This document shows positions 9,893 through 33,385 of a stretch of DNA of 64,000 nt, piece after piece. The notes under the pieces are model-generated. The model searched no databases. It was not told the origin of the DNA and worked only from the letters and a program-made list of their open reading frames with translations. The stretch is from an uncultured Planctomycetales bacterium (GTDB lineage Bacteria; Omnitrophota; Gorgyraeia; Gygaellales; Profunditerraquicolaceae): contig CAZRVK010000009.1 of the NCBI GenBank assembly GCA_964603585.1, positions 7,319 through 71,318 of the forward strand. The letters run 5' to 3'. The translations under genes and the position numbers were made by a program. Every line of letters begins with the position of its first letter. Position 1 is the stretch's first letter.

Positions 9893-11132
9893 TTATTCTG
9901 CGGTTAAAAATGAAGTTTACGATCCCTACAACGCTGAATATACAACCCACCACTACTAAAATCGAGACCCGGGATATTCGTTCAGCAAGCATACTACTTA
10001 CAAACATAAACAATAAAAACCCCAGATGCATTACTATCTCCAGGGAACTAAAAACCTTTCCCCTCATCTCGGTATCGCTGGAATTATGAATAATGGTATT
10101 AGAAGCGATCATAATCGGAGAAACCAGGAGCCCTAACGCAGAAGAAAGCATTGCCGCGATCAAAAATGAAGGGTATCGATTCAGCGTAAGAGCAAATACC
10201 ACTATCATTATACCACTTAAGAAAAGAGAAATAAATATTATCTTGTATTGTGAAAACTTCTGGCCGAACCGCCCATAAGCCAAAGACCCCAGGAATAACC
10301 CTATCCCCAAGAACATCACCAACAGCCCAAGGTCCTTAGTAGCGGAGTGCAGGGTGTTCTGCACAAAAACGATCAACACCACATAAATCGCCCCCAAGGC
10401 CGACCATAAAATAAAGGTGATCCCGGAGGTAAAACGGATATCTTTATTATTTATAAAATACTGCACTCCCTCTTTAATCTCCTGCAAGACCGATTTTCTG
10501 ATCAGCTCGACGATCTGCTTTCCTACATTCTTAAAGCTTACGGAAGAAACGGGTTTCTTGGCGATACAAAAAATGAGTGTCGCAGAGACTAAAAAGCTTA
10601 TTCCATCAAGGATAAACCCGAACTGCGCCCCCAGCCACTGCACCAATACCCCGCTGATCCCAAACCCCAGGATCGCCGCGATCATCCCGGTAATATTAAC
10701 CAGTGAATTGGCCAAAAGAAGGTCTTTCTTATCCACCAGGTCAGGAATGATCGCCAGCTTTGCCGGAACAAAAAACCTGCCGATAGAAAATATGATAAAA
10801 ACAATAATATAAATCGGCACCAGGCTTTTAGAGTAAAAAAGGCACAGCGGAATAATTAATACGAGAATTGCCCGAAGGAAATCACAGATATACATCGTGC
10901 GCCTTCTATCCCAGCGGTCCACATACACCCCGGCGATCGGCCCGATGAGAAACACCGGAATGATCGTAAATGACAGGATTTTAGCGATCTCCATTGCCGA
11001 ACCAGGGGCCCGATGATAAACAAAAGCGATCAAAGCCATCTGGTCAAGCCGGTCACCCAATTGCGAGATGATCTGGCCGATCCAAAGCAGGAGGAAATTA
11101 CGATTCCTTAGGACTTCATGGAATTTTGCCAT
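9885..11132 (-). CDS. MFS transporter
   Basis: 415 aa with about 12 TM helices and MFS-like loops. Confidence 0.7.
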   Translation of the reverse strand: MAKFHEVLRNRNFLLLWIGQIISQLGDRLDQMALIAFVYHRAPGSAMEIAKILSFTIIPVFLIGPIAGVYVDRWDRRRTMYICDFLRAILVLIIPLCLFYSKSLVPIYIIVFIIFSIGRFFVPAKLAIIPDLVDKKDLLLANSLVNITGMIAAILGFGISGVLVQWLGAQFGFILDGISFLVSATLIFCIAKKPVSSVSFKNVGKQIVELIRKSVLQEIKEGVQYFINNKDIRFTSGITFILWSALGAIYVVLIVFVQNTLHSATKDLGLLVMFLGIGLFLGSLAYGRFGQKFSQYKIIFISLFLSGIMIVVFALTLNRYPSFLIAAMLSSALGLLVSPIMIASNTIIHNSSDTEMRGKVFSSLEIVMHLGFLLFMFVSSMLAERISRVSILVVVGCIFSVVGIVNFIFNRRINV

Positions 11133-11144
11133 ATAAAAAATAAA

Positions 11145-11217
11145 AGCCGATGAGAGGGATCGAACCTCCGACCTTGACTTTACGAAAGTCCTGCTCTACC
11201 AACTGAGCTACATCGGC
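11145..11217 (-). tRNA. tRNA-Thr (anticodon CGU)
   Basis: The reverse complement GCCGATGTAGCTCAGTTGGTAGAGCAGGACTTTCGTAAAGTCAAGGTCGGAGGTTCGATCCCTCTCATCGGCT folds as a cloverleaf with anticodon loop TTCGTAA. Confidence 0.75.
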
Positions 11218-11232
11218 ATAAATACCTTACCA

Positions 11233-11238
11233 ATTATA
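11233..11238 (-). promoter_or_regulatory. putative extended -10 (TGgTATAAT) for tRNA-Thr
   Basis: On the minus strand GTTGGTATAATTGG sits about 9 nt upstream of the tRNA 5' end. The -35 is weak. Confidence 0.35.
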
Positions 11239-11312
11239 CCAACTTTTTAGAAAAAATAAAGCAGATTAAACCAAGTTCTGTGAAAAATTATTATAAAGGT
11301 ATTGACAAGAAC

Positions 11313-16880: not shown

Positions 16881-18605
16881 TTACTGCGAAAGATCCTCTA
16901 AGATCTGGGGCAAATCTCCCTGCTTAATCAATTTCTTAAAGTATAGTTTTTTGGCGATATTGGCTCTTTTTTTTACGATTCTTTCTGAACGGTCCCAAAC
17001 AGTAAACTGCCTGGGATTAGGCAGTATCACTGCCAAACGGATCGCCTCGGGCATGGTTAAATCCGATGCCGGCTTATTAAAATAAACCTGCGCAGCAGAT
17101 CCTGCCCCATAGATCCCATTCCCCCACTCCACAATATTCAGATAAAGCTCGAGAATTCGGTTTTTTGATAAGGATCTTTCCAACTTATACGCAATAATCA
17201 TCCCCCGTATTTTCCGAATGATACTTTTTGACGGGTTAAGAAATAGGTTTTTTGCCAACTGTTCGGTGATCGTTGAAGCACCTGAAGTAATTTTTTTCTC
17301 TGAAACCACCCTCCTTAACGCCCAATCAAAACTCTCCCAATCAAACCCTCTGTGATCAAAAAAATTACGATCCTCGGCAACAACCACCGCATCAACCAGG
17401 TTCTGGGATATCTGGCTTAAAGGTGTATATTGCCACTGGATAAGATATGGCTTATCCAGATTGGCTGCTTCATTATTGCGGATACGCATCAAAGCAGTCT
17501 CTGAAGGATTCCTCTCTTTCAACCAGGAAATATCCGGAGTGAAAAACCAGAACAATAATGACATAAAAACAATAACAGCAAATAAACAAGCTATCCCCAT
17601 TAACACTTTTCTTCGTAAGATTTTTAATGAATACTTTTCATCTGCACCGCTTGCGCTTGCGTTAACCCCCATAATAAAACCGCACAACAGGCAAAAAAAC
17701 ATATAAAAATTGCTCTTATAAAGTAATGCCCCCCGGTTCAACTCAATTAAAATCACGGCAAGAATCAATATACCGGCAAGTAAAGCTTGTTTTTTATTAT
17801 CCTGCGTGATCCGGATAAACCCTGAAATACCGCGTTTAAATAACGCAGATACCAGGACAATAAATCCTGATAGCCCGATCAAACCGGTTTCTATCAATAA
17901 GCTAAGGTACATATTATTCATTGCAGATTTAGACACCCATCCGCGTTTAAAAGGATAATATTGATCGAAAACATACCCGTACCTGTCCAGCCCCACCCCT
18001 ACAAAAGGATAATCTTTGAATATCTCCAAAGACATCTCCATCTGCAGGGGTCGGTACGGATAAAAAATATCCCGGTTAAACACTCCCGGGAAGAAATGAC
18101 TTATTGCTATTGCCATCAATAATACGACGGAGGAAATAATGAAGCTTTTATACCGCTTATTCGCCAAAAGATAAACCAGCACCGCAGTGATCAGTATCAA
18201 AACCATCTGCTTGCCGATAAAAGCGGCTAACCCTCCGGAGAGCAAGAAAACCTTAATGGCAAGACGTCTATCTTCATCTGAAAAGGACAAAGATTTACCG
18301 ATGTAAAAAAGAAAGAACATGTTCGTAGATAGGTCAAGGTATATGCCTAAGGCCAGGTCTTTTCTTGACACCGGAAAAAGGCAGGCGCAAAGGCCTATTA
18401 TGAATAACCACACCGGCCAATCAGACAACGTAACCAAGCCCGGCGCTTCTTTTTTGGCAGGCAATAAATAACAAAAAAAAGCAAGTAAGAATAACTTTAC
18501 CAAGAGCACATATTCTTTTTGCACTTGTAAAGGAACAAAGAAAATCAAAATAAAAAGGGAACTGATAAAAAAAAGGTTTTTAGGTATATTTATCTTTATC
18601 GGCAT
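16881..18605 (-). CDS. polytopic membrane domain (O-antigen-ligase/Wzy-like, unverified) fused to a GT51 peptidoglycan transglycosylase (MtgA-like) domain
   Basis: About 10 TM helices in the first 340 aa. The C-terminal domain carries GT51 motifs: EDRNFFDHRGFD, GASTITEQLAKN, RKIRGMIIAYKLE, and a GxG motif. Confidence 0.65.
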   Translation of the reverse strand: MPIKINIPKNLFFISSLFILIFFVPLQVQKEYVLLVKLFLLAFFCYLLPAKKEAPGLVTLSDWPVWLFIIGLCACLFPVSRKDLALGIYLDLSTNMFFLFYIGKSLSFSDEDRRLAIKVFLLSGGLAAFIGKQMVLILITAVLVYLLANKRYKSFIISSVVLLMAIAISHFFPGVFNRDIFYPYRPLQMEMSLEIFKDYPFVGVGLDRYGYVFDQYYPFKRGWVSKSAMNNMYLSLLIETGLIGLSGFIVLVSALFKRGISGFIRITQDNKKQALLAGILILAVILIELNRGALLYKSNFYMFFCLLCGFIMGVNASASGADEKYSLKILRRKVLMGIACLFAVIVFMSLLFWFFTPDISWLKERNPSETALMRIRNNEAANLDKPYLIQWQYTPLSQISQNLVDAVVVAEDRNFFDHRGFDWESFDWALRRVVSEKKITSGASTITEQLAKNLFLNPSKSIIRKIRGMIIAYKLERSLSKNRILELYLNIVEWGNGIYGAGSAAQVYFNKPASDLTMPEAIRLAVILPNPRQFTVWDRSERIVKKRANIAKKLYFKKLIKQGDLPQILEDLSQ

Positions 18606-20329
18606 TGTTTTATACTAAGCTCCAGCAACTTTATCCCCAATGTACGCTCATCGCCATTGCCGGGTTTTTTTATGATAGGCGCCTCAAAAGTGATATTATT
18701 GATCTGGTTGAACCTAATCATCCCTGCGTCAAATACCAGGGATTGCCTTTTTGAGCGATTTCCAACTGTCAAGTTGCCAATCAATCGATTATTCAGAAAA
18801 ACACTGACAACCTGGTTTACCAAGGATTCAGCGTGAATAACCAGGGCATACTCCCTGCAATCATCTTCTTTATCTTTAAGCCTCAATAAAAGCACGGATC
18901 TTTTTGCCAGGCTCCAGCGGTATCTGGCATTCGGCCATGACCAGCCCTCGACAAATATCGCCTGGCTGTAACCATCAAGCCCTATCCGTTCATTCATTTT
19001 GTATTCCCGCATTGTTTTCTTTAACTGCGGATAATAACTCTGGTAATTACCGCCCAACCTCGTGCCGCGTAAAAACTGGATATCCTGCAAATTCCAGGCC
19101 CTCTCCTGGTTATAGTTAATATCATTTGGCTCCCAGTTCCATTTCCATACCTCCCAATCAGTCGCCCCGCGGTAATGCACAAAGAAACTGAATGCCAAAA
19201 ACAGCCAAAAAATTAGTCCCGCCAACATCCGCTTTTTATTTTTCCGGCTGAATATTAAAGGGATAACCGGGATAATGAAATAAATAAAAAAAGGAATTAT
19301 ATCCGAAATATAACGCGAGCCAAAAGATGCGCCGGCACACCAATAAGGGATAAGGGAAGCCGCCAGCCAATACAGAAGCATCGTTATCAGCACAAAATAA
19401 TCCAAACGTCCAAACTTAGCGCTTTTTATTTTCAGATAAATCCCCAGAATAGAAAATAAGAGTATGGGGGAAAAAATAAATATCCCCCGGGAAGGGCTGA
19501 CCAAATGGCCAAGCAGCCTCACAAAAAAACCCGCATCGACCCCGGTTTTTCTATAAAGATAATACTTCGGCAGGATCGCTCCATATATATTCAAGTTATG
19601 GATAAAAAACAAGCCGATAATTACCGTCAGCCAAAAGAAATAATACAACGCGTATTTCCGGTAAGAGAACAAGATAAATATCGAGAAAATACCGATGACG
19701 ATAATGTTCGTTGGCCTGACTAAATAGGAAAAGGCCAGGGTGATCCCCGCAAATTGCGCTAAGTACGGTTTTTTGCGCGCTAACACAAATAGGTACAAAG
19801 TTAAAGCCAAAAACAGCATTGACGGCCCGTGCTGCCATAAGGCCCGCGTGCCGATCGACCAGGCAGAGGTACAGAAACTAAAAATAAAAGTAACCAGCAA
19901 TGCCTGGATCTTATTGATAAATTGGCTCGCCAAAAGGTAAATTAAAGCCGCGCATAAAGCAATAATGCATGATGCAATCAGGCGCTCTATCTGTTCATAA
20001 TATTCGGTAAGGTCAAGATCCCAGAAACGATTGAAGATATAAACAAATGGCACAGCAACCAGAGATACCCCAAGAGGGAATATCGTATAGAAATGTCCCC
20101 GGGAGTTTATAATAGTCCAGCCGCCGTGGGTTCGAGAAAGGATTGTGGAGTAATCGATGTATTCATCCAGGTCGGTATTGCCTTCTTTAAGGAGGCTAGT
20201 TGCGGTATGTATTGTCCAGCTGGAATCCCAGGCAGTTGTAATAGGTAATCTTGCATTAATCAATGTTACGCATATGCTGATTGCCAGGGCGATAACAAGA
20301 TTACTGGTAACAAGCCTCTTAATTGTCAT
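18596..20329 (-). CDS. GT-C fold membrane glycosyltransferase (ArnT/PMT-like, family uncertain)
   Basis: About 11 TM helices plus a C-terminal extracytoplasmic domain. The ORF track begins at TTG 20368, but an ATG at 20329 (MTIKRLVTS...) sits 6 nt after a TGGTATAAT element. This suggests a leaderless start. Confidence 0.55.
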   Translation of the reverse strand: MTIKRLVTSNLVIALAISICVTLINARLPITTAWDSSWTIHTATSLLKEGNTDLDEYIDYSTILSRTHGGWTIINSRGHFYTIFPLGVSLVAVPFVYIFNRFWDLDLTEYYEQIERLIASCIIALCAALIYLLASQFINKIQALLVTFIFSFCTSAWSIGTRALWQHGPSMLFLALTLYLFVLARKKPYLAQFAGITLAFSYLVRPTNIIVIGIFSIFILFSYRKYALYYFFWLTVIIGLFFIHNLNIYGAILPKYYLYRKTGVDAGFFVRLLGHLVSPSRGIFIFSPILLFSILGIYLKIKSAKFGRLDYFVLITMLLYWLAASLIPYWCAGASFGSRYISDIIPFFIYFIIPVIPLIFSRKNKKRMLAGLIFWLFLAFSFFVHYRGATDWEVWKWNWEPNDINYNQERAWNLQDIQFLRGTRLGGNYQSYYPQLKKTMREYKMNERIGLDGYSQAIFVEGWSWPNARYRWSLAKRSVLLLRLKDKEDDCREYALVIHAESLVNQVVSVFLNNRLIGNLTVGNRSKRQSLVFDAGMIRFNQINNITFEAPIIKKPGNGDERTLGIKLLELSIKQCR

Positions 20330-20335
20330 TTTTAG

Positions 20336-20364
20336 ATTATACCACCCTGGCTTAACCTTGATAA
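20336..20364 (-). promoter_or_regulatory. promoter with TTATCA, 17 nt spacer and extended -10 TGGTATAAT; likely leaderless mRNA
   Basis: On the minus strand TTATCAAGGTTAAGCCAGGGTGGTATAATCTAAAAATG, so the ATG lies at about +1. Confidence 0.5.
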
Positions 20365-20594
20365 GCAATTTATAGCAATAAGGGTTTAAACATCTCTAAT
20401 ACCGCTTCAAGCATAAAAAAACTGAACGGTTAAGTCCAGGCGGGGAAAATACTACCCTAAAAGTGGTTAATGGCAGTTCAACTCCCAAGGCCTTTTTTAA
20501 ATATCCGGCTGTAACAAAAAACCAACAGGCTCAAAATAAATACCCAAGAGATAATCATGAACATCCCGCCGCTAAATGTCATCTGGCCCCCCGC

Positions 20595-21806
20595 TTATAA
20601 ATAAACAACATCGTCCTTATAAAATAACGAAAGAAACAGCAGGATATAGTCACGTAAATGCCTGGTGATGAGAAAATTGTTCCGGATATGTTCCTTGCCG
20701 TTGTCTCCCAGTTTTTGGGCATACGCCGGGCTGTTTAAAAGTTGTTTTAAGCCAAAGGATGCCCCCGGGACCGAATGGCACAACAATCCGGAATATTTGT
20801 GTTTGATCTGCAGGGGGATCCCCCCTACATTAGAGGCAATCACCGGTTTTGCTTTCCATAAAGCTTCCGCCACCGTCAGACCAAACCCTTCGCGAAGGGA
20901 TTTTTGCATGATGATCGTGGAAGCCCGCTGCAGCGCATTAATTTCTATGTCATTTTGAGAAAGAAGCAAAATATGGATATCTTCGTCTTTATCGGCGCGT
21001 TCTTTTACCTCGGCAAAGACTTGAGCCCCTTCCGGGTCATCCACTGCACCCCCTCCGGCTAAAACCAGCCGGCAATCAACATATTTCTTTACTTCCGCAT
21101 ATGCCTCAATGACACCTAAAGGATCCTTTAAACGGTCAAAACGGGATATTTGCGTAATAATAGGTTTATCTTTGGGGATCTTGTATTTACGCAGTACCGC
21201 ATCAATTATTTCCTGCGGCAATTCTTTATTTTTATCACTTAAAGGGTCAATCGAAGGAGAGATCAAAAATTGCCTTATCGGTAGTTTTCTTGAAAAAGAA
21301 GGCGCAGAAAATACAGCCGAATCATATTGGACTATGAAATCCATTAAGAAATCCCAAACCTTCTTATTGGGATTGGACACATCAATATGGCAGCGCCACA
21401 GCCATTTATTGGCGCCTTTCTTCTTGACCATGGCGATCGGTTGCGGGTCATGCACAAATACAATATCCCCGTATATATTCAATTCTTTAAGATTCTCCTG
21501 GCTTGTTTCCAGAAAAATATCAAAATCCCGGGAATTAATCGCTCCCGCCTGCCCGTGAAGCAGGTTATGGAACTTCTTCGTGACCTCAAAAAACTGTTCT
21601 CCCCCTTTTATCACATCCCAGCGGGTATCAATCCCCAGCTGCTGCAGCAATGGGGTCATCCGGTTAAGGATCTCGGCAACACCCCCTCCTACGGCCGTAG
21701 AATTAATATGCTGGATAGACTTTCCTTTTAGGCGGCTTGATATAAGGCGCAGATCATCTATCACGGATTGCCCCACAAGAGGGATATACTCTTCTATGTT
21801 TATCAT
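20595..21806 (-). CDS. GT4 retaining glycosyltransferase, TreT-like (trehalose glycosyltransferring synthase) candidate
   Basis: 403 aa with N-terminal INSTAVGGGVAEIL and a C-terminal E..G....EA motif (REGFGLTVAEALWKAKPV). Size and motifs resemble TreT. It sits in an operon with otsB and otsA. Confidence 0.55.
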   Translation of the reverse strand: MINIEEYIPLVGQSVIDDLRLISSRLKGKSIQHINSTAVGGGVAEILNRMTPLLQQLGIDTRWDVIKGGEQFFEVTKKFHNLLHGQAGAINSRDFDIFLETSQENLKELNIYGDIVFVHDPQPIAMVKKKGANKWLWRCHIDVSNPNKKVWDFLMDFIVQYDSAVFSAPSFSRKLPIRQFLISPSIDPLSDKNKELPQEIIDAVLRKYKIPKDKPIITQISRFDRLKDPLGVIEAYAEVKKYVDCRLVLAGGGAVDDPEGAQVFAEVKERADKDEDIHILLLSQNDIEINALQRASTIIMQKSLREGFGLTVAEALWKAKPVIASNVGGIPLQIKHKYSGLLCHSVPGASFGLKQLLNSPAYAQKLGDNGKEHIRNNFLITRHLRDYILLFLSLFYKDDVVYL

Positions 21807-21807
21807 T

Positions 21808-22479
21808 TTAACAGGATATCCTATTCTCGACGATATTAATAATCGTTGCCCTTAAATCTTCCAATGTCCTGGTGTACGGGTCAAGCCTAGATATTTCTTC
21901 AGCAGTATCTTTATCATCCAATGAATGCTCGAACCAATTCGAAAAATCATTGGTATCATGCTCTAACCTTAAACGCGACTCAAAGATATGGAAGTAAATA
22001 GAATCCACCGTGATTCTCTTTAGGATATTAACGAATTCTTCACGATCACGCGCCTCATTTGCGGTAGGGATGATAAAACTTATCGATTTTATGAAATGAA
22101 ACTCTTCACCTTCCCTGGCGAATTTAAGCTTTGCCCACTGATTATTCTTGAGATGCTCTTCAATCGTTTCGACGATCTTGTCCCTTAAGTTCCTGATGTT
22201 GGAGAACTGTATGGTATCGATACTGGCAAGCTCCTCCCCTAACCTCTCATCGCCTATGATCTTAGTTACCCAATACGCAAAATCATTGGGCGGCTCGGGA
22301 GACAAGTATTGATGCTGTAGCAAAAACCTGTGGGTGTGATGATAGATACATGAACCGGGGACACTTTTTATCAAATCTTTCAATTGCCATAGCGTGGCGG
22401 CCCTTAACCCGGTCAGCTCGGATAAATGCAGCCGCGCATAAAATCTGAATGGCTCTTTTGACTTAGATAAAGATGGCAT
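21808..22479 (-). CDS. hypothetical protein (223 aa) in the trehalose operon
   Basis: Good coding potential. No recognisable motifs. Confidence 0.5.
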   Translation of the reverse strand: MPSLSKSKEPFRFYARLHLSELTGLRAATLWQLKDLIKSVPGSCIYHHTHRFLLQHQYLSPEPPNDFAYWVTKIIGDERLGEELASIDTIQFSNIRNLRDKIVETIEEHLKNNQWAKLKFAREGEEFHFIKSISFIIPTANEARDREEFVNILKRITVDSIYFHIFESRLRLEHDTNDFSNWFEHSLDDKDTAEEISRLDPYTRTLEDLRATIINIVENRISC

Positions 22480-22481
22480 CG

Positions 22482-23273
22482 TTATCCTATCCCCAGTATT
22501 TGTTCCATGAATTTATCCACTTCTACCGCATCATTCACAAAATAATCCGCCTCTGAAACCTTGGGAGGGCCTACAAATATTGTTAAGCCTTTGTTCTTTA
22601 ATATTCGAAAACCATCCTCGTCGGTTATATCATCCCCGAGGTAAACGGGGAAGATATCATCTTTTACGGCTGAACCTTGGGGCCTGGACAAAAACCACAA
22701 TACCGCCTTGCCTTTATCCCAGTCCACCTTAGGCCTGATTTCACAGACCTTCTTACCTTCTTTAATCTCGATCTTTTTGCGCACCATAAAAGGATCTGTA
22801 ACCTCCGAGAAAATGCGCAAAAACCTTGGCATCTCTTTTGGATCCATTAAACGATAATGCACACTAATCGCCAAGCCTTTATCCTCGATCAACACCCCCT
22901 TGATCCCTGCAAGATTATTTAATATATCCTTATAAAGGTTGCGGATAACCAACCTTAATCTCGGTGAAACCTGGCTTTCAAACTTTATTCCGGGCCCTTC
23001 TATCTCTATACCATGATTACCTACATAAACAATCTCTTTTAGTCCAATAATGTTCTTTATATCTGGCAATGCCCGCCCGCTTATTACCGCTACCTTAAAA
23101 TTATTTCTTTTAGACAATTGCCTTAGCAATTCTTTTGTCTTCCCGGAGATCTCCGCCTGCTGCGGGGTCTCTGCGATCGGGGTTAAAGTCCCATCATAGT
23201 CAAAAAAGAATAAAATATGTTTGCCGTACAACTGCCCTTTTATCTGTTCCCACTGGTCGAATAAATATTGCAT
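22482..23273 (-). CDS. otsB: trehalose-6-phosphate phosphatase (HAD superfamily)
   Basis: FFDYDGTLTPIA and GDDITDE HAD motifs. Confidence 0.8.
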   Translation of the reverse strand: MQYLFDQWEQIKGQLYGKHILFFFDYDGTLTPIAETPQQAEISGKTKELLRQLSKRNNFKVAVISGRALPDIKNIIGLKEIVYVGNHGIEIEGPGIKFESQVSPRLRLVIRNLYKDILNNLAGIKGVLIEDKGLAISVHYRLMDPKEMPRFLRIFSEVTDPFMVRKKIEIKEGKKVCEIRPKVDWDKGKAVLWFLSRPQGSAVKDDIFPVYLGDDITDEDGFRILKNKGLTIFVGPPKVSEADYFVNDAVEVDKFMEQILGIG

Positions 23274-23277
23274 CCAG

Positions 23278-25515
23278 TTATACTTTCTTTAACGCCGCAA
23301 GTTCGGTAATAATATTCCCTGCCCAGCGATAAATATTGTTCTCCATGACCACCTTCTGCATCTTCTCCATCCGCCTTGTTTTTTCCTCACCCGGCAGGTC
23401 AAGGGCTGACTTTATACTGTCGGCAAACTCTTCTATCGAATAGGGATTTACTTGAACCGCATCGGTCAACTCTCTTGCTGCCCCGGTAAACTGGCTTAAA
23501 ATCAGGGCGCCCGAGAGGTCTTTTTTGGCCGCTACGTATTCCTTGGCCACAAGGTTCATCCCGTCATGAAGCGAGCTAACGATACAAAGATCGGCCATTT
23601 TATAAAACGGCTCGATTTCATCCAGTGAAAAATGCTTTTTAAGATAAATGATCGGTTTCCAGCTATGATCGGAATATTTCCAGTTTTTCTTCTCGATTAA
23701 TTCGTCGATTTCTGCCATCAGGTCATGATAACGCTTTATATGCACGCGGCTGGGGGCAGCCAGCTGGATAAAAACAAATTTCTTCTGATACTCCGGGTAC
23801 TTTTCTAAAAACCTGTCTATCGCAAGCACCCTTTCCACGATCCCTTTTGTATAGTCGATCCGATCGACCCCCAGGCCAATGATTTTTCCTTCAAGATCAA
23901 ACTCCTTCTTAATCGTATCCACCTCTTGCATTACTGCTGGATCATTTCGGCTTTGATTTAAATGCCCATTAACACTGATCGGAAAAGCCCGCACAAAAGT
24001 TTCTTTTTCGGAACGGACAATACTGAACTTCTCCAAGTCAACTCTTGATTCAAGGAGCCTGTTAGCTGTATCCAGGAAATTATTGCAATGGTTCTGCACA
24101 TGAAAACCTATTAAATCGCACCCAAGCATCCCTTCCAGGATCTCTTTGCGATAAGGGCAAATGGAAAATGCCTCTGGGGTAGGCCAAGGTATATGCCAAA
24201 ACATGGCGATCGTAACGTCGGGACGCTTCTCCTTGATCATTTTCCCAAGCAGGGTAAAATGATAATCCTGAATGAACACAAAGGCGTGTTTGGCGGGAAG
24301 CTCATCTAAAACAGAATCCGCGAACTTCTGATTCACCTTCTTATAAATCTGCCAGTCCGAATCACGAAAGATCGGCCGGGTATGTGTATTATGGCTTAAA
24401 GGCCATAACCCCTCATTGGAAAACCCGTAATAATAACCGTCCTCTTCTTCTTTATTAAGCCATACCCTTTTTAAGATATAACGTATATCTTTAGGCGGGA
24501 CACCGAGCTTGTCCTTTGAATTGACGAATTTTTTATCCACATTCCCGGACCCGTGAGCAATCCATGTGCCGCCACAAGCACATAAAACCGGGTGAAGCGC
24601 CGTAACCACCCCGCTTGCAGGCCTGATACATCTTTCTAAACCAGTTGCCTCATCAGCTATATGCATATATGGCTCACGGTTAGAAACTACAAATAACGAA
24701 TTCTCACCCAGCTTAGCCCGGACAAGGTCTTTTAATTTTACTTCCGTCCATATTTCTTCTTTTTCTATACGCACCTGTGCTTCGTCGGAGATCGAACGCC
24801 TGGCGACCCTTAAATTCAAAGCCACCTGCTCAACCTCACTGGCAAGTTTGCCTAAATCCCCCTTTTCCCTGATAGGATGTGCTTCATCGGTTTCGCCTTT
24901 CTGAAAATATTGAAACCAATCCGTGAGCCGTTTAATAGGCAAAACAAAGATCTGCCGATGCAAAAGAATGGATATCGCAAAGATCACTACTACTAAGATT
25001 ATTAACGTCGAGCTAATACGTCTCCAGAGTTCAGTTAACCTGGCAAAAACATATGAGGTATCATGTATAACCTCGATCATTCCCAAAAGCTCGCCCTCAT
25101 CATCAAGGATAGGAAGGATATAACTGTAAATCTGGTAATCCTTAAACTGCTCCATTTCCCCTCTGGGGGATTTGCCGGTCAAAACATCTTTGATATAAGG
25201 CTTATCTTTTTCTTTCCAATCGCCGAAACGTTTAGTAAGCGCGATTATATTACCGTCTTTGTCATAAATAGCGCACCCCTGTAATCTTTCCCTGGTTTCA
25301 AACTTCTCGGTAAGATAATTTGCGTTCTTGAGATCATTGGCTAAAAGCACGTGTTTTACCGATAATTCCATGCTTTCAGCGATGCTTTTGGCTTTTCGTT
25401 TCAAGTCATCAATCAGCTTCTCTTCTTCAAAACGCACCTGAAAGAAACCAAAAAGCGTAAAAGCCGCGGAAACAATAATTAAGATCGGCAGGATAAATAA
25501 AAGGACTCTTCGCAT
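23278..25515 (-). CDS. otsA: membrane sensor-HAMP domain fused to trehalose-6-phosphate synthase
   Basis: A TM helix (residues 5-25), an extracytoplasmic domain of about 140 aa, a second TM helix and a HAMP-like segment. A full OtsA GT20 domain then runs from about residue 265 to 745, including a VNPYS motif. GAGGTGG Shine-Dalgarno. Confidence 0.8.
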   Translation of the reverse strand: MRRVLLFILPILIIVSAAFTLFGFFQVRFEEEKLIDDLKRKAKSIAESMELSVKHVLLANDLKNANYLTEKFETRERLQGCAIYDKDGNIIALTKRFGDWKEKDKPYIKDVLTGKSPRGEMEQFKDYQIYSYILPILDDEGELLGMIEVIHDTSYVFARLTELWRRISSTLIILVVVIFAISILLHRQIFVLPIKRLTDWFQYFQKGETDEAHPIREKGDLGKLASEVEQVALNLRVARRSISDEAQVRIEKEEIWTEVKLKDLVRAKLGENSLFVVSNREPYMHIADEATGLERCIRPASGVVTALHPVLCACGGTWIAHGSGNVDKKFVNSKDKLGVPPKDIRYILKRVWLNKEEEDGYYYGFSNEGLWPLSHNTHTRPIFRDSDWQIYKKVNQKFADSVLDELPAKHAFVFIQDYHFTLLGKMIKEKRPDVTIAMFWHIPWPTPEAFSICPYRKEILEGMLGCDLIGFHVQNHCNNFLDTANRLLESRVDLEKFSIVRSEKETFVRAFPISVNGHLNQSRNDPAVMQEVDTIKKEFDLEGKIIGLGVDRIDYTKGIVERVLAIDRFLEKYPEYQKKFVFIQLAAPSRVHIKRYHDLMAEIDELIEKKNWKYSDHSWKPIIYLKKHFSLDEIEPFYKMADLCIVSSLHDGMNLVAKEYVAAKKDLSGALILSQFTGAARELTDAVQVNPYSIEEFADSIKSALDLPGEEKTRRMEKMQKVVMENNIYRWAGNIITELAALKKV

Positions 25516-25730
25516 TAAAATACCACCTCACATGACCAGGGGGCCCAAGGATTGTAAAAACAATGGGCCGGCACCTGAGATGACTCAGATGGCGGCCCGA
25601 CCATCTATTAATCCTCCAAGGATATTTTACGCATCCCCAGACCACTTAGATTAAATTTCTTCCTGTAATATACCACAACCCAAGCAAACTTCAACAAAAA
25701 CTTACAAACCGCAGATACCTAATAAAGTAA

Positions 25731-25797: not shown

Positions 25798-26004
25798 TCA
25801 AGAAGCAACTATTGTAGAACAAACATCGCAAGGGATTGATCCGCAAGGGGAGAATTCCGAGTCTGGACCGCTGGTAAACTCCACACCATCAGGCATTTTG
25901 CAAGAAATAAGAACCACTTCTTCCCTGCTTGCTTTTATTAGCCTTATCAACGATGGCTTTACCCAAATCTTTTTGATTTTACACTCCATGCTTTCATTAG
26001 ACAT
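25798..26004 (-). CDS. small Cys-rich protein (68 aa), leaderless
   Basis: MSNESMECKIKKIW...SPCGSIPCDVCSTIVAS begins at an ATG 7 nt after a perfect -10. It ends at the palindrome. Confidence 0.35.
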   Translation of the reverse strand: MSNESMECKIKKIWVKPSLIRLIKASREEVVLISCKMPDGVEFTSGPDSEFSPCGSIPCDVCSTIVAS

Positions 26005-26010
26005 GAAAAA

Positions 26011-26039
26011 ATTATACTTCACAAGTTTTATCCTGTCAA
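26011..26039 (-). promoter_or_regulatory. perfect consensus sigma70 promoter (TTGACA, 17 nt spacer, TATAAT)
   Basis: On the minus strand ATTGACAGGATAAAACTTGTGAAGTATAATTTTTTCATG. Confidence 0.6.
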
Positions 26040-26149
26040 TAACCCGATAAGGAGGTAATAGAAAAATGCCTGTCCCAAAAGTGACTGTCACCTTTGACAT
26101 GCCTAAATAAAACAAAAAGAGAGGGTTACAATAACCCCCTCTTTTTAAA

Positions 26150-26224
26150 TGGTGCCGAGGAAGAGAATCGAACTCCCCACGCCGGCCTTTTCAGGGCCGC
26201 GCTCTACCACTGAGCTACCTCGGC
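26150..26224 (-). tRNA. tRNA-Phe (anticodon GAA), CCA encoded
   Basis: The reverse complement GCCGAGGTAGCTCAGTGGTAGAGCGCGGCCCTGAAAAGGCCGGCGTGGGGAGTTCGATTCTCTTCCTCGGCACCA has anticodon loop CTGAAAA. Confidence 0.8.
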
Positions 26225-26262: not shown

Positions 26263-26982
26263 TTATAAGCCTAACAATTTTACCACAAATGGTGAAAATA
26301 TCAAATAAATTATGAATAGAATGGCCATGATCAAAGAAAATGAGAATCCCCCAGTAATCCAATAAGATACAAACAAAACCAGCAATAACCCCGCAAGAGA
26401 AACAAAAACCGCTGGAATTGACCGGCATAAGATCATTCTTACGGAATTCAGGTTTGGATACTTGATCTTCGAGATCATGAGAAAAGACAGCCCTAACATT
26501 AAGAATAAAAATCCATACTTAGGGAAATACTGGACAGAATTTAAATACAGCAAAATAAGAAAACCCAGTATCCCCCCACTCATAGTAACAGGCAAACCGA
26601 CGAAACAATTTGATAATTCTTCCTTAGGAGTAAGATTGTATCTTGCCAGGCGCAATACAGCGCAAATCAAGTAAATAGATAAAACCCCGACTACCCAAAA
26701 ATGAGATTTTTCATATATCAACGTATACCCCAATACTGACGGAGCTACGCCAAAAGATACCAGGTCCGCAAGTGAATCGAGCTCCCTGCCGAATTGGTTA
26801 GAGTGATGGTTCATCCTCGCTAATTGCCCGTCCAAACCATCGAAAAACACAGATAATAGTATCGCCCAGCTCGCAATAAAAAATTGGGATTTAAAAGAGG
26901 AAATAACAGAAAGAAACCCCAAGATAAGGTTTACCAGGCTAAAAATATTAGCCAGACGATTATAAGGCACATCATTCTTCAT
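26263..26982 (-). CDS. pssA: CDP-alcohol phosphatidyltransferase (phosphatidylserine synthase-like)
   Basis: DGLDGQLAR...GRELDSLADLVSFG matches the D-G-x2-A-R...G-x3-D-x3-D motif. Polytopic. Confidence 0.7.
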   Translation of the reverse strand: MKNDVPYNRLANIFSLVNLILGFLSVISSFKSQFFIASWAILLSVFFDGLDGQLARMNHHSNQFGRELDSLADLVSFGVAPSVLGYTLIYEKSHFWVVGVLSIYLICAVLRLARYNLTPKEELSNCFVGLPVTMSGGILGFLILLYLNSVQYFPKYGFLFLMLGLSFLMISKIKYPNLNSVRMILCRSIPAVFVSLAGLLLVLFVSYWITGGFSFSLIMAILFIIYLIFSPFVVKLLGL

Positions 26983-29381: not shown

Positions 29382-31400
29382 TTAATCATTGATCATTTTA
29401 AATATCTTGTCCAGATTACTACGCGCCTCGGCTTCTCCCCGCAAGAAAAATTCCTTGGCCCGGCCTAACTCCAGCCAATGCATACCTTGGGTATCCGGAT
29501 GTAAGACGACATCCGCCAACAACGCCTCTTTCTGTGCTAATTCTGACTGCATCATTTCAAAACTGCTGAAGATCGAATCCAGGATATTCGTCTTGAATTG
29601 ATCTTTTAAATACGAACGTAAATCAAACCATCTCCTCTTCTTTACTGCCGCATAGGTATCGGCAAGCTGTTTTTCTAAAGATCTGCGGTATTTAATCACA
29701 TCCTCTTTGGAAGGGGTAACATTGACCGCAATGATCTTTTTAACCCCCATGGAGATCAACGGCTCCGTGGGTAACGGATGCACTACACCTCCGTCAAAAA
29801 GCAGTTCACCTTTAAACCTAAAGGGCCAAAATACACCCGGCATCGAACAGCTTGCCATGATCGCATCCAATAAAAGGCCTTTTTCTATGACCCGCGGCTC
29901 TTTTTTCTTTATATCACTGGCGATGATCTTTAGGGGAAGCCTTGTATCATAAAAAGTCTTATGCCCAAAATATTTCTTTAAAAGATTATAAAGTTTATTG
30001 CCTTTTATAAAGCCTATTACAGGGAACGTCAAATCAACCAAACTCCAGACATAACGGGGATCATGGAACTCCTGGGTGATCGACAATATCTCATCCGCGG
30101 ATTTTCCTATTGCCCAGAGGCTGGCGATCAATGAACCCATGCTTGTTCCGGTGATGACATCAATAGGGATATGTTCTTCCTCAATCACCTTTAAAACACC
30201 GATATGGCAGAACCCATATGCAAACCCCACGCCCAAAGCCAGGCCTACCAAAGCATCCCCTTCCTGCCGGGAAATCCTCCTAATCACCCGGGAATACTCA
30301 CAACCCGGGTCATCAATGATCATCCGGTCCCCGGTCTTAAACTCCACCTTGGGCAGAGTGGCAAAGATACTATACCCCAATATCTCTACCTGTTCATCAG
30401 GGGATACCTTTGCAAATTTATATTCATTGATTATAACCTTGATCTTCGATTCCTGAAAATTAAAATCATCTTTAAGCCTTTCGATCAAACTACGGGTGCG
30501 CTTCAAATCCACAGGCTCCGGGCTGGTTAGGGTATGGATAGAATCTGATTGATTGAGGACATGAAAAACAAAATGATCCATTGAAGACGGCAAATCAAGA
30601 ATAATATAGTTATAATCATTTACCAGCAAAGTAAAGATTTCCACCAGCCTGCGCACACAGGATGCATCTTCAATGTTGTAAGTAAAAAATGCTACATCAA
30701 TACCAAATTTATCTTTAATAATAAAGTCTTGGATCCGGCCAAGGTTTTCAGAATCAAGGCTCAAATCGAATACCCCGTAATCCCCGGTAATGTCCAGCCG
30801 TTTCGGTAAACTATGAAGCCTGTCCTTGGGGCAAACATCCAGGATAATCAACCGCTTCCTTGTCTCATGCTGCAGGCTAAACGCCAAATTAAGGGCATAA
30901 ATGGACTTACCGGCCTGCGAATAAGAACTAAAAACCGAGATCACCTTGCTTTCAAAAACAATTTTTTGATGTATATCCTTGTTTTTGAGCCTGCGGGAAA
31001 GAGTATGGCTGAAATGAATAGCCAGCGACGGTATTTTCTCAAGAATAAGCTTAAAATCGTCTTTGTTAATCACTAAAATAGTGCAGTCATTAACCGCCCG
31101 CGCGGTAACTGAATGGGTTTCTCCGGTCAAAAGAGAGATGATCCCAAAATACTTGCCATGATGGAGATATTCCAATACAGTTTCATTGCCTTTTGAATCA
31201 TGGGTAAAAACAGAGACCCTCCCGGAGACAATACAATAAAATGCAGCTCCGGGGGAACCTTCCTCATAAATAACCTCGCCTTTCTTGAAATTGGCAATAC
31301 CCGATCTTTCCTTTATGTAATCGATGTCTTTTCCCTTAAGCCCGGAGAATAAAGGGATTTCCTGGAATATTAAATCTTTATTGATCGGGTCCATGTTCAC
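29382..31400 (-). CDS. cNMP-binding domain :: degenerate ParA/MinD-like domain :: patatin-like phospholipase (NTE-like)
   Basis: Residues 15-130 form a cyclic-nucleotide-binding fold. Residues 150-370 form a ParA-like fold with altered Walker A (SSYSQAGKS). Residues 385-580 are a patatin domain with GVGFAYG, the GTSMG serine motif and a DGG Asp. Confidence 0.7.
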   Translation of the reverse strand: MNMDPINKDLIFQEIPLFSGLKGKDIDYIKERSGIANFKKGEVIYEEGSPGAAFYCIVSGRVSVFTHDSKGNETVLEYLHHGKYFGIISLLTGETHSVTARAVNDCTILVINKDDFKLILEKIPSLAIHFSHTLSRRLKNKDIHQKIVFESKVISVFSSYSQAGKSIYALNLAFSLQHETRKRLIILDVCPKDRLHSLPKRLDITGDYGVFDLSLDSENLGRIQDFIIKDKFGIDVAFFTYNIEDASCVRRLVEIFTLLVNDYNYIILDLPSSMDHFVFHVLNQSDSIHTLTSPEPVDLKRTRSLIERLKDDFNFQESKIKVIINEYKFAKVSPDEQVEILGYSIFATLPKVEFKTGDRMIIDDPGCEYSRVIRRISRQEGDALVGLALGVGFAYGFCHIGVLKVIEEEHIPIDVITGTSMGSLIASLWAIGKSADEILSITQEFHDPRYVWSLVDLTFPVIGFIKGNKLYNLLKKYFGHKTFYDTRLPLKIIASDIKKKEPRVIEKGLLLDAIMASCSMPGVFWPFRFKGELLFDGGVVHPLPTEPLISMGVKKIIAVNVTPSKEDVIKYRRSLEKQLADTYAAVKKRRWFDLRSYLKDQFKTNILDSIFSSFEMMQSELAQKEALLADVVLHPDTQGMHWLELGRAKEFFLRGEAEARSNLDKIFKMIND

Positions 31401-31405
31401 TTAAA

Positions 31406-32626
31406 TTACTCCAGAGTACCGTTCTTACAAACCAGTGCAAAACGCCTGGCGCTTTCTCTAATCTTGCGCTGATAAGTGTTATAATCCACATCCACAAGCC
31501 CAAACCGAGGGCCAAACCCTTTATCCCATTCAAAATTATCCATTAAAGACCAGTAGATATACCCGGAAACCTTTACCCCTGCTTGCATCGCACGATGCAG
31601 GCTAAAAAGATGCGCGCGAATAAACTCCCAGCGCAAATTATCATCTGCCGTGCAAATCCCGTTTTCCGTAATAATTACCGGCAGATTATACCGTTTTACT
31701 TTTAAAAGCGTATCATACAACCCTTCGGGATAAATATCCCAATTTAACGAATTCTTTTTTAAGGGATGGTGATTTTTCTGGCACTCGTCTAAAAGCAAGT
31801 TCATAAACCTGGGTTTTTGCACCTCCACCAAGCTGCGCGTATAATAATTGATCCCGATAAAATCAATCGCTTTATGCCGGTAAACCTCATCCAGGAACAA
31901 TGTATTATAAAGCTTATCCCTCAAATAGACAGCAAATTTATCCCGCAGGCGGTCAGTGCAGGGAACAAATGCCTGCATGTTCTTGGCAAAACTAATATAA
32001 GGAGCCGGCAAATTAGATTTTCTGTAAATATCCTTTATCGCATAATACGCCTTAACATGGGCGTTTTTAAAAGTCGCTCCTATCTTCCATGCCTTACAAA
32101 GAGATCTCTCCTGGGGAGGCCAATCCCCAAGGATATAGCCATGATAAACATACACCATCGGCTCATTAATTGTGATCCAGTAACGAGCCTGCCCGCTTAA
32201 AGCCTGCACAATATGCTTTACATACCGCAAGAAAGACTCACAGGCATCACGCCTAAGCCAACCGCCAGAATGGGCAAGCCAAAGGGGGATGGTAAAATGA
32301 TTCAAGGTGACCAAAGGCTCAATTCCCCGGGACTTTAACTGACCAATGACATTTACATAATGCTGTGTTTCTTCAGCAGAAAATTCCCCCTCTTTTGGTT
32401 CAACACGGCTCCATTCAATAGAAAGCCGATGCGCATTATGCCCCAATTGCCCCAACAAATCAAAATCCTGCGGATATAATTCATAATGCCGGCAGGCAGA
32501 CCCGGAGGTATGGGCCAACCCAACCCGCTTCTCCCATTCCCACCAATCAGCGTTAGAATTATTCCCTTCGACTTGATAACTGGAAGTAGCTGACCCCCAA
32601 AGAAAATTTCCAGGAAATTCAATCAT
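31406..32626 (-). CDS. bglA: GH1 beta-glucosidase
   Basis: LWGSATSSYQVEG at the N-terminus, ITENG nucleophile and NEP acid/base motifs. Confidence 0.85.
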   Translation of the reverse strand: MIEFPGNFLWGSATSSYQVEGNNSNADWWEWEKRVGLAHTSGSACRHYELYPQDFDLLGQLGHNAHRLSIEWSRVEPKEGEFSAEETQHYVNVIGQLKSRGIEPLVTLNHFTIPLWLAHSGGWLRRDACESFLRYVKHIVQALSGQARYWITINEPMVYVYHGYILGDWPPQERSLCKAWKIGATFKNAHVKAYYAIKDIYRKSNLPAPYISFAKNMQAFVPCTDRLRDKFAVYLRDKLYNTLFLDEVYRHKAIDFIGINYYTRSLVEVQKPRFMNLLLDECQKNHHPLKKNSLNWDIYPEGLYDTLLKVKRYNLPVIITENGICTADDNLRWEFIRAHLFSLHRAMQAGVKVSGYIYWSLMDNFEWDKGFGPRFGLVDVDYNTYQRKIRESARRFALVCKNGTLE

Positions 32627-32631
32627 GATTG

Positions 32632-33030
32632 TTAAGATTGTGTTTGGATGAAAAGATTTTCTTTCTTGAAACCTTTGTATATCCGGTATGATAAGAAATA
32701 AAAATACCCCCGCACCGGATTAGTTAGAATATCTACAATCAAATGCTGGGTAAGCCCCAGCATAAAAGCAATCCATATTACTGATAAATGCATGGACAAT
32801 ACAGCCATCCAAAGGACCAGGATAAGCTCGATAGAATGAAAGAATATAAAAACAAACCGGAATTGTCGTAAAACAAACCATTGATAAACCTTAGGGAAGT
32901 TAAAAGTAAACCCGCGCTGCAGATAATAATCAAGCATATGGTCTGCGTCTATTAAAGTCCCGGCAGCAAGAGCCGCATAAAAAGCTCCCCACGACTTAGA
33001 AATAAAATAGATTATAGAGCTTATACCCAA
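32632..33030 (-). CDS. DUF457/YdjM-like membrane-bound metal-dependent hydrolase (putative)
   Basis: 132 aa with 4 TM helices and His/Asp motifs DADHMLDY and HLIVDIL. It is the first gene after the riboswitch. Confidence 0.5.
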   Translation of the reverse strand: MGISSIIYFISKSWGAFYAALAAGTLIDADHMLDYYLQRGFTFNFPKVYQWFVLRQFRFVFIFFHSIELILVLWMAVLSMHLSVIWIAFMLGLTQHLIVDILTNPVRGYFYFLSYRIYKGFKKENLFIQTQS

Positions 33031-33160: not shown

Positions 33161-33341
33161 GCCGATAAAGGCAATGGCCACACACCCACGCCATCTCCTT
33201 CGGCAACCCAGCTGCCATAACAGCTAACCCGCTAAAACCGCTGGCCAGAAAACCCACAACCAGCACCAGCAAAAACGAGCATCACTGCCTTAGGCCTGTA
33301 GCTTTGCGCCCCCCGGTTTCCCGAGGTTTGCCTTTATCGGC
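33161..33341 (-). promoter_or_regulatory. c-di-GMP-I (GEMM) riboswitch aptamer with extended P3
   Basis: Minus-strand RNA: AGCCGAUAAAGGCAAACC UCGG-GAAA-CCGG GGGGCGCAAAGCUACAGGCCUAAGG ... GCUGGGUUGCCGAAGG ... UUGCCUUUAUCGGC. GGCAAACC, the GNRA tetraloop hairpin, GGGRCGCAAAGC, GGCCUAA and GGGUUxCCGA appear in the order and spacing of the V. cholerae Vc2 aptamer. P1 is closed by a 14-bp helix (33161-33174 with 33328-33341). Confidence 0.65.
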
Positions 33342-33385
33342 TAAGTTAAGTATATACCAAGATTACACTGATTTCAAGTAAAGCC

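Follow-up and report, generated by a model that had tools for sequence, protein, structure and literature searches.

In a 64,000-nucleotide stretch of an Omnitrophota genome (contig CAZRVK010000009.1; hereafter the window), the trehalose-6-phosphate (T6P) synthase OtsA forms the C-terminal part of a 745-residue protein that begins like a transmembrane (TM) receptor. Two TM helices with an extracytoplasmic domain between them, a HAMP-like region, and a linker precede a GT20 glycosyltransferase domain whose catalytic residues are intact. Both the fusion and the operon that it heads (otsA-otsB-orfY-treT) are conserved in related genomes, and the operon is preceded by an nhaA-I riboswitch that competes with an intrinsic terminator. 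With a sensor-OtsA fusion behind a riboswitch leader, trehalose production seems to be controlled at both transcription and the enzyme. It is tentatively proposed, with somewhat more doubt than belief, that such Cache-HAMP-GT20 proteins form a class of one-component transmembrane receptor enzymes not described before, with a receptor module that would directly gate a GT-B glycosyltransferase, layered on a cation riboswitch.

Bacterial trehalose synthesis is controlled mainly by transcription (RpoS and osmotic induction of otsBA) and by metabolite effects on a soluble enzyme. To our knowledge, known OtsA enzymes are soluble and cytoplasmic, and their regulation is through expression, metabolites, or partner subunits. 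In a synthase with receptor architecture, the cell exterior would be linked directly, at the protein level, to compatible-solute production. The OtsA/OtsB and OrfY/TreT parts and the riboswitch class are already known, as is a loose association of the riboswitch with otsA (PMC9646797). The receptor-synthase fusion is undescribed in the papers found, none of which reports a bacterial T6P synthase joined to a HAMP domain or a transmembrane sensor, and it is hidden by the flat database annotation "trehalose-6-phosphate synthase".

Architecture and conservation of the receptor-synthase fusion

The minus-strand region 25515..20595 contains four tightly packed co-directional open reading frames (ORFs) with gaps of 4, 2, and 1 nt (Table 1). 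An earlier note on this DNA had read the first product as a TM helix, an extracytoplasmic domain, a second TM helix, and a HAMP-like segment fused to OtsA, and hydropathy, family-level profile matches, and a fold search all agree with it.

Table 1. Coordinates of the trehalose operon, its leader, and the domains of the sensor-OtsA fusion in the window
Feature	Position	Strand	Basis
Sensor-OtsA fusion gene, 745 aa	23278..25515	-	ORF, Pfam, NCBIfam, homologues
TM1, residues ~4-26, MRR ahead on the cytoplasmic side	25438..25506	-	Kyte-Doolittle peak 2.86; model helix 2-48
Predicted extracytoplasmic single-Cache/PDC (PAS-like) sensor domain, WalK-like, residues 27-165	25021..25437	-	sCache_3_2, Foldseek
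TM2, residues ~166-188	24952..25020	-	Kyte-Doolittle peak 2.96
Predicted HAMP, residues 189-238: LPIKRL helix, connector, GDLGKLASEVEQVALNL helix	24802..24951	-	Family profile, homologue matches, model
Predicted helical linker, residues 239-272, carries W256	24700..24801	-	Alignments, model
GT20 trehalose-6-phosphate synthase domain, residues 273-745	23281..24699	-	PF00982, PDB 5jij, E. coli OtsA alignment
otsB, trehalose-6-phosphate phosphatase, 263 aa	22482..23273	-	TIGR00685
orfY homologue (DUF5752), 223 aa	21808..22479	-	PF19027 E 9e-68; PDB 4CSO E 1.5e-20
treT, GT4 trehalose glycosyltransferring synthase, 403 aa	20595..21806	-	TreT_GT1; PDB 6ZJ4, 2x6q
nhaA-I motif aptamer (Li+-I / Na+-II class)	25587..25644	-	Rfam RF03057
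Intrinsic terminator (expression platform)	25556..25598	-	Folding; 5' arm = aptamer P2 loop + 3' arm
Candidate sigma-70-like promoter TTGAAG-16-TATATT, TG before the -10 hexamer	25667..25694	-	Consensus match alone
Shine-Dalgarno GAGGTGG, 7 nt before the ATG at 25515	25523..25529	-	Read from sequence
Terminator-like hairpin + T-run past treT, candidate operon end	20414..20439	-	Consensus scan

In the Kyte-Doolittle profile (19-residue averaging), exactly two peaks above 1.6 occur, at residues ~4-26 and ~166-188. Positive charges lie ahead of TM1 (MRR) and past TM2 (HRQ...KR), which fits an N-in topology with about 140 residues outside. A cleavable signal peptide in place of TM1 is conceivable (VSA-A at residues 15-18); the hydrophobic stretch is ~22 residues long and was modelled within one helix spanning residues 2-48. 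This question is not decisive, because TM2 would anchor the protein regardless.

Profile searches of the N-terminus for Cache and HAMP domains gave a divided outcome, in that the window protein itself stays below the Pfam thresholds and part of its homologues give matches. The Pfam family sCache_3_2 aligns with the window protein at E 1.4e-5 to 4.6e-5 (24-25.6 bits, gathering score 28.4), and dCache_3 at 20-23 bits, below its cut-off of 25.7. At the family level (84 N-terminal homologues, E <= 0.01), sCache_3_2 was matched by 59, dCache_1 by 55, and HAMP (PF00672) by 15, the best of these at E 1.5e-6. In addition, residues 4-245 are covered by the NCBIfam model of WalK (E 3e-11).

The homologue alignment was also used for an AlphaFold model of residues 1-270, which reached a mean confidence (pLDDT) of 85.6 and about 90 across the Cache region. 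The predicted order is a long helix, a helical cap, a five-stranded antiparallel sheet, a long helix, a loop, and a last helix. In a Foldseek search against the PDB, the top match was the full-length TM-sensor-TM-HAMP model of WalK (9a5d_A, E 2.7e-11, 255 columns, TM1 through HAMP), followed by the Staphylococcus aureus WalK extracellular domain (5is1 and 4ywz, target TM-scores 0.71-0.76) and, further down, by the sensor domains of KinD, DctB, DcuS, and CitA; probability 1.0 was assigned to WalK (5is1, 4ywz), DcuS (3by8), CitA (2j80), and KinD (4jgp). On these profile and model comparisons, the sensor is predicted to be a WalK-like single Cache/PDC domain, with many invariant polar or aromatic residues (R75, Q79, Y84, T94, and others). 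A CBS domain in the periplasmic part was also considered, on account of a profile match to MJ0922 (E 9e-4) and Pfam CBS matches in 5 of 84 homologues, and was rejected: the fold is PAS/Cache-like, and the resemblance is a local strand-turn-strand one. Searches with the N-terminus for kinases or other outputs carrying the same module returned GT20 fusions or fragments exclusively, with a word-index limit that could miss distant kinases.

With regard to the HAMP region, the ~50 residues right after TM2 (LPIKRL...QKGE...GDLGKLASEVEQVALNL) follow the expected layout, in which the first helix (AS1) opens at a proline and is followed by a connector and a second helix (AS2) with a DExG-like motif. 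A family profile aligned end-to-end with the HAMP domain of Af1503 (2l7i/2y0t; positions 6-56 of 58, residues 189-238, E 0.17-0.21), pairing the proline starts (LPIKRL/RPIIEL) and the DExG-like motifs (GDLGKL/DEIGIL). The 1-270 model places a helix at 154-206, a loop, and a helix at 220-251; the top Foldseek match takes in the TM2-HAMP region of WalK, and weak NCBIfam similarities to SiaA and YfiN span TM2 and HAMP. A HAMP domain thus appears to be present but divergent, as judged from alignments and models.

In a full-length model (pLDDT 82), AS2 runs to residue 252 and is followed by a short break with W256, a helix at 258-269, strand beta-1, and the SNR loop. As modelled, the run from HAMP AS2 through the linker into beta-1 would connect a signalling helix to the acceptor-phosphate site by as short a route as can be imagined. 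W256 is invariant in the Omnitrophota homologues (A3) and in 19 divergent N-termini (A5), and nearly so in A1.

The GT20 domain, placed at about 265-745 in the earlier note, was located by PF00982 at residues 274-740 (E 7e-125, 417.9 bits vs gathering 32.5). Among solved structures, M. thermoresistibile OtsA is the nearest to it (5jij, E 2e-86), and alignment to E. coli OtsA gave 33% identity (E 8e-68). Residues R9, D130, H154, R262, K267, R300, D361, and E369 of the E. coli enzyme, which we take to be the known glucose-6-phosphate- (G6P-), UDP-, and glucose-binding/catalytic positions, correspond to R280, D417, H441, R552, K557, R590, D651, and E659. R280, in the SNR loop, is presumably the counterpart of the E. 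coli arginine that binds the phosphate of G6P. All eight residues are invariant or nearly so across 23 divergent fusions. Accordingly conserved in its active site, the protein is predicted to make T6P from NDP-glucose and G6P.

The possibility of a wrong start codon, or of a mistaken fusion with a separate upstream gene, was rejected: the ORF is one and uninterrupted, the Shine-Dalgarno sequence is well spaced, and 745-residue homologues are conserved from residue 1. The true start is therefore not downstream at the OtsA domain. An exact look-up of the 745-residue protein on contigs returned no record. More than 120 protein clusters (90% identity level) of 740-748 residues were found at 97-100% query cover and 74-89% identity, and the source records of close homologues carry the name Candidatus Omnitrophota. 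When two peptide patterns from the N-domain were searched for in GTDB genomes, one per species, 262 species genomes matched; almost all are labelled Omnitrophota, and the rare exceptions may be due to binning. The fusion is thus the standard OtsA across a large part of the uncultured Omnitrophota.

The layout also occurs in other phyla. An exhaustive HMMER search at the 50%-identity level added at least 20 clusters of 725-780 residues, with GT20 starting near residue 210-270, that share the order TM, ~140 residues, TM, ~80 residues, GT20. Clusters of this layout include members from metagenome-assembled genomes named Acidobacteriota and Bdellovibrionota, annotated just as trehalose-6-phosphate synthase. 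The N-termini of distant fusions share ~15-25% identity, with W256 as the sole invariant residue and D37 nearly so. A cultured example is hinted at by the G. sulfurreducens genome paper, in which GSU2337 "contains a domain" similar to OtsA. The sensor fusion is not an annotation artefact.

Among 47 full-length homologues, identity and the share of invariant columns were 81% and 44% in HAMP, 80.5% and 40% in GT20, and 77% and 22% in the periplasmic domain. HAMP is conserved to the same degree as the enzyme domain, and this comparison of sequences indicates that selection acts on the module.

A few other GT20 proteins (P0234, P0276, P0279, and P0291) carry polytopic membrane N-termini of 350-430 residues with at least 6 hydrophobic segments, rather than Cache-HAMP. 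For OtsA-like enzymes, this is an alternative mode of membrane attachment, unlike that of the sensor fusion.

The trehalose operon and its leader riboswitch

The presence of otsB and of a TreT-like GT4 gene downstream, recognized in the earlier note, was borne out by profile matches. OtsB passes the equivalog cut-off of TIGR00685 (176.3 bits vs 68.05). The 403-residue protein contains the TreT-specific N-domain PF21269 (TreT_GT1; E 1e-54, 184 bits vs 27) together with Glycos_transf_1, and is closest to the crystallised T. uzoniensis TreT (6ZJ4; E 3e-122, residues 4-394, ~57% identity by hand count of the alignment); P. horikoshii TreT (2x6q) is also close (E 3e-98). The 223-residue protein, by contrast, had been called unknown and can now be assigned to DUF5752 (PF19027, 228 bits vs gathering 23). 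It is homologous over its full length (residues 5-218) to the PDB entry 4CSO, "OrfY protein, transcription factor", which we take to be the ORF beside treT in Thermoproteus tenax (Kouril et al. 2008). Its homology to T. tenax OrfY makes orfY-treT a known gene pair or module; a literature search found no published account of DUF5752, of OrfY with trehalose, or of 4CSO.

Among related loci with a complete otsA and at least 3 kb of downstream DNA, the order otsA-otsB-orfY-treT was kept in 55 of 61 (tblastn), and orfY-treT was absent from 6. Median intergenic gaps in related loci are 10-22 nt. A 590-residue membrane protein encoded 3' of the operon (20368..18596) adjoins it in no related locus, and was left out of the system for this reason.

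Upstream, the leader contains a match to the whole nhaA-I model (RF03057, positions 1-55 of 55) at 45.6 bits vs gathering 37, 68-71 nt from the start codon. Our own covariance model of the motif (R1, 32 instances) scores the window aptamer at 60.8 bits. In these 32 instances, 95.7% of the P1/P2 cells are paired (reached by 0 of 500 shuffles; slid controls 39-57%), 10 of 15 pairs vary on both sides, a count that a single one of 500 shuffles attained, and the covariation score was reached by none of 500. Since the conserved P2 loop guided the choice of alignment, it is P1 that gives the independent covariation signal.

The terminator consists of a 15-bp stem followed by AUUGUUUUU, with a folding energy of -27.1 kcal/mol (z = -5.1). 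It shares the P2 loop and 3' arm of the aptamer, so ligand-stabilised P2 should prevent termination, which would make the element an ON switch. The overlap of aptamer and terminator recurs in related loci. The regulatory picture of the earlier note, which covered 20595-25515, had omitted both RNA elements (25644..25556), which lie beyond that span.

The association with otsA is recurrent. In 80 related loci, 61 R1 copies were found, all on the otsA strand; a copy lies <=150 nt from otsA in 25 loci and <=2.5 kb away in 25 more, often with mscS in between. Counted by locus, the motif stands upstream of the operon on the same strand in 50 of 76.

The nhaA-I class has been validated as Li+-sensing, with rare Na+-responsive variants that use terminator platforms (PMC9646797). 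Of 944 representatives, 16 were associated with otsA and 3 with mscS, and the authors suggested that such RNAs might sense Na+ in connection with osmotic stress (PMC9646797). It was also reported that a C before the CGGGCC loop marks Na+-II and a U marks Li+-I, and that the terminator platform occurs only in deltaproteobacterial Na+-II variants, which carry the C (PMC9646797). The window and 29 of 30 related loci have U at this position, whereas the Na+-II construct of D. propionicus has C (AGCCGGGCC).

A second nhaA-I copy, with a terminator of its own, occurs just past treT in eight related loci (L005, L006, L007, L012, L013, L028, L048, and L055), and an Rfam scan found none in the window. 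In L005 this copy (10939-11001) is followed by a small ORF (11069..11263, MKMVMLVYNEAIDVEVMEILDGCG...) that appears to encode a small PII/GlnB-like regulator.

Proposed mechanism and alternative explanations

The explanation favoured here is that of a salt/osmotic-stress trehalose operon, in which a cation riboswitch controls transcription and a receptor-gated synthase acts at the enzyme level; we regard it as evenly poised between right and wrong. Salt or osmotic stress is suggested as the relevant signal by the riboswitch and by MscS neighbours. Of 80 related loci, 17 carry a gene for an MscS-family channel (Pfam MS_channel) that is either inserted between otsA and otsB or directly precedes otsA on the same strand (for example, L013 8253-9308 and L018 5057-5992).

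According to this scheme, the operon would be induced by raised intracellular Li+ or Na+: the cation would bind, P2 would form, the terminator would be blocked, and RNA polymerase would read into the operon. OtsA would be tethered to the membrane, N-terminus inside, through TM1, a periplasmic WalK-like Cache domain, TM2, a cytoplasmic HAMP, and a linker that leads into beta-1 and the SNR loop. By analogy with other HAMP receptors, the fusion is probably a parallel homodimer. A periplasmic or membrane signal, be it ionic strength, osmolarity, or a Cache-pocket ligand, might then pass through HAMP and linker to turn T6P synthesis on or off without new protein, and OtsB would free trehalose. OrfY-TreT may provide a second route from NDP-glucose and glucose, with no need for G6P, or may serve trehalose turnover. 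We infer that the N-terminal module changes catalysis, and likewise the sign of this control and the cation that is sensed.

Receptor control of catalysis is the weakest link of this composite explanation, because the GT-B active site lies within one protomer, while HAMP domains steer cyclases and kinases via dimer geometry, and because we know of no precedent for a HAMP domain gating a glycosyltransferase. A literature search likewise found no GT-B sugar-nucleotide transferase as a HAMP output.

Several other observations weigh against the explanation. For the receptor module, PF00672 gave no match to the window protein at E <= 0.1, so that its HAMP fails every Pfam threshold; a HAMP match was seen in just 1 of 23 more distant fusions; the window protein's own Cache match falls under the Pfam gathering score; and model confidence is low in the linker region (pLDDT 55-56 at residues 231-250). 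Regarding the enzymes, the fusion missed the cut-off of the OtsA equivalog TIGR02400 (425 bits vs 564.85), so its name and substrate are taken from family membership, conserved residues, and context, that is, the adjacent bona fide OtsB. The TreT protein missed the cut-off of the NCBIfam TreT equivalog NF041139 (356 bits vs 775), a model specific to Thermococcales. As to the signal, about one third of the related loci have no riboswitch within reach, and no MscS gene was found within the window. Moreover, the specificity nucleotide is the U of the Li+-I type and not the C of Na+-II, which leaves the ligand uncertain.

Part of this evidence would also fit a simpler role, in which the N-terminal module is a membrane anchor or dimerisation scaffold instead of a signal receiver, and regulation is left to the riboswitch and substrate supply alone. 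T6P synthesis would then be placed at the inner membrane face, for example close to MscS or to transporters of sugars, or at sites of lipid protection by trehalose. The weak HAMP and Cache similarities of the window protein, the strong divergence of the N-termini of distant fusions, and the frequency of MscS as a neighbour are all in keeping with such a role, and the polytopic N-termini of other GT20 proteins, which have no sensor-like domain, suggest that membrane tethering itself is selected. A plain anchor, however, needs neither a folded periplasmic domain of 140 residues nor a HAMP with 44% invariant columns, and it would not call for the invariant polar and aromatic residues of the periplasmic domain; the order TM-Cache-TM-HAMP is the standard layout of signalling proteins. 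We therefore consider a mere scaffold unlikely.

A receptor might also serve another purpose. The Cache domain could sense a specific extracellular small molecule unrelated to osmolarity, such as a carboxylate or a metabolite of a host or partner, with trehalose or T6P acting as a carbon store or a signal. The best Pfam similarity is to sCache_3_2, the fold matches that come after WalK include the carboxylate sensors DcuS, CitA, KinD, and DctB, and Omnitrophota are considered to rely on other organisms for their sugar supply (PMC8542988). On the other hand, the closest fold is that of WalK, an extracellular domain with no known small-molecule ligand, and the genomic context (nhaA-I riboswitch and MscS) points to ions and osmotic stress. 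This explanation is given about the same low standing as the scaffold, well behind that of an osmotic-stress operon.

That GT20 makes another phosphorylated glycoside, such as glucosylglycerol-phosphate, in an operon not primarily for trehalose is very improbable: the TIGR02400 score (425 bits under a cut-off of 565) and a good score for the GgpS model TIGR02398 leave room for it, but OtsA models score far better (E 2.7e-127 vs 1.9e-95), the G6P-binding residues R280 and R590 are retained, the neighbouring gene clears the trehalose-phosphatase equivalog cut-off, and the last gene of the operon encodes a TreT with 57% identity to a trehalose synthase of known crystal structure.

Related systems and neighbouring genes

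The osmotic-stress reading, with a synthase gated by its receptor module, can be set beside five known systems. Like the soluble OtsA enzymes (E. coli 1GZ5, M. thermoresistibile 5JIJ), the window protein is a GT-B GT20 enzyme with all donor, acceptor, and phosphate-binding residues, and otsB is adjacent as in otsBA; it differs in the additional 272-residue N-terminal TM-Cache-TM-HAMP-linker module. The order of TM1, extracellular PAS/Cache-like domain, TM2, and HAMP is shared with WalK (YycG; 5IS1, 4YWZ, model 9a5d), a histidine kinase of Firmicutes. However, identity to WalK is just 15-20%, the output is a glycosyltransferase and not a PAS-DHp-CA kinase, and there is no cognate response regulator.

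Single-polypeptide receptor enzymes with HAMP between TM2 and the catalytic domain are known among mycobacterial class III adenylyl cyclases (such as Rv3645), the diguanylate cyclase YfiN/DgcN, and the PP2C phosphatase SiaA. In these enzymes, it is dimer geometry or a regulatory phosphatase fold that governs activity, whereas the output of the fusion is a GT-B sugar-nucleotide transferase.

The trehalose systems of T. tenax, orfY-treT and an msc-gt-tpsp operon that ties a mechanosensitive channel to TPSP (PMC3634074), likewise have OrfY directly upstream of TreT, combine the routes of T6P synthase/phosphatase (TPS/TPP) and TreT, and link a mechanosensitive channel to trehalose genes, as do 17 of 80 loci related to the window. 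In contrast, the Omnitrophota system is bacterial, TPS and TPP are separate proteins, a PimA-like activating glycosyltransferase is absent, TPS would be membrane-tethered via the receptor module, and the operon is under a riboswitch.

The leader matches the Li+-I/Na+-II riboswitches over the full model and above the gathering score, and its terminator platform resembles that of the Na+-II variants (PMC9646797). It differs from them in joining a Li+-I type U to a terminator platform, in its Omnitrophota host, and in the receptor fusion that is the downstream otsA. The Li+ riboswitch paper left open why otsA follows nhaA-I RNAs and whether these sense Na+ (PMC9646797). Here an nhaA-I RNA fronts a whole trehalose operon, in related loci often with MscS, which gives that remark a concrete context. 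If the proposal is true, otsA-associated nhaA-I RNAs would be salt-stress switches, a signal from the membrane or from outside the cytoplasm could switch compatible-solute synthesis within seconds, and a metabolic glycosyltransferase would join the short list of HAMP outputs (kinase, chemoreceptor, cyclases, and phosphatase).

The candidate promoter of the operon sits between the riboswitch and a very strong terminator hairpin (25793-25735). This hairpin belongs to a small Cys-rich ORF on the minus strand (25798-26115, internal start MSNESMECKIKK...CGSIPCDVCSTIVAS) that matches no Pfam family and has a perfect TTGACA-17-TATAAT promoter at 26039..26011; it might be a peptide precursor. Further upstream of the operon, on the same strand, are genes for a CDP-alcohol phosphatidyltransferase (26263-26982) and an SNF-family sodium:solute symporter (27074-28633). 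In L057, L070, and L080 an SNF gene is again found near the operon, perhaps as a further tie to sodium or osmolytes.

Three tRNA genes were found on the minus strand (26153-26224, 11145-11217, and 83-156), the first of which lies between the phosphatidyltransferase gene and the small ORF with the trehalose operon. A c-di-GMP-I riboswitch (33199-33342, minus strand, 73 bits) stands upstream of a 132-residue membrane protein (33030..32632); this is followed by a 406-residue ORF (32626..31406) that by its motifs resembles family-1 glycoside hydrolases, and by a 672-residue ORF (31400..29382) with putative cyclic nucleotide-binding and patatin-like parts. GC skew is negative in nearly all 2-kb bins of the window (1-64000), and the genes examined (16.9-33.9 kb) are all on the minus strand, consistent with a single replichore and a strong strand bias.

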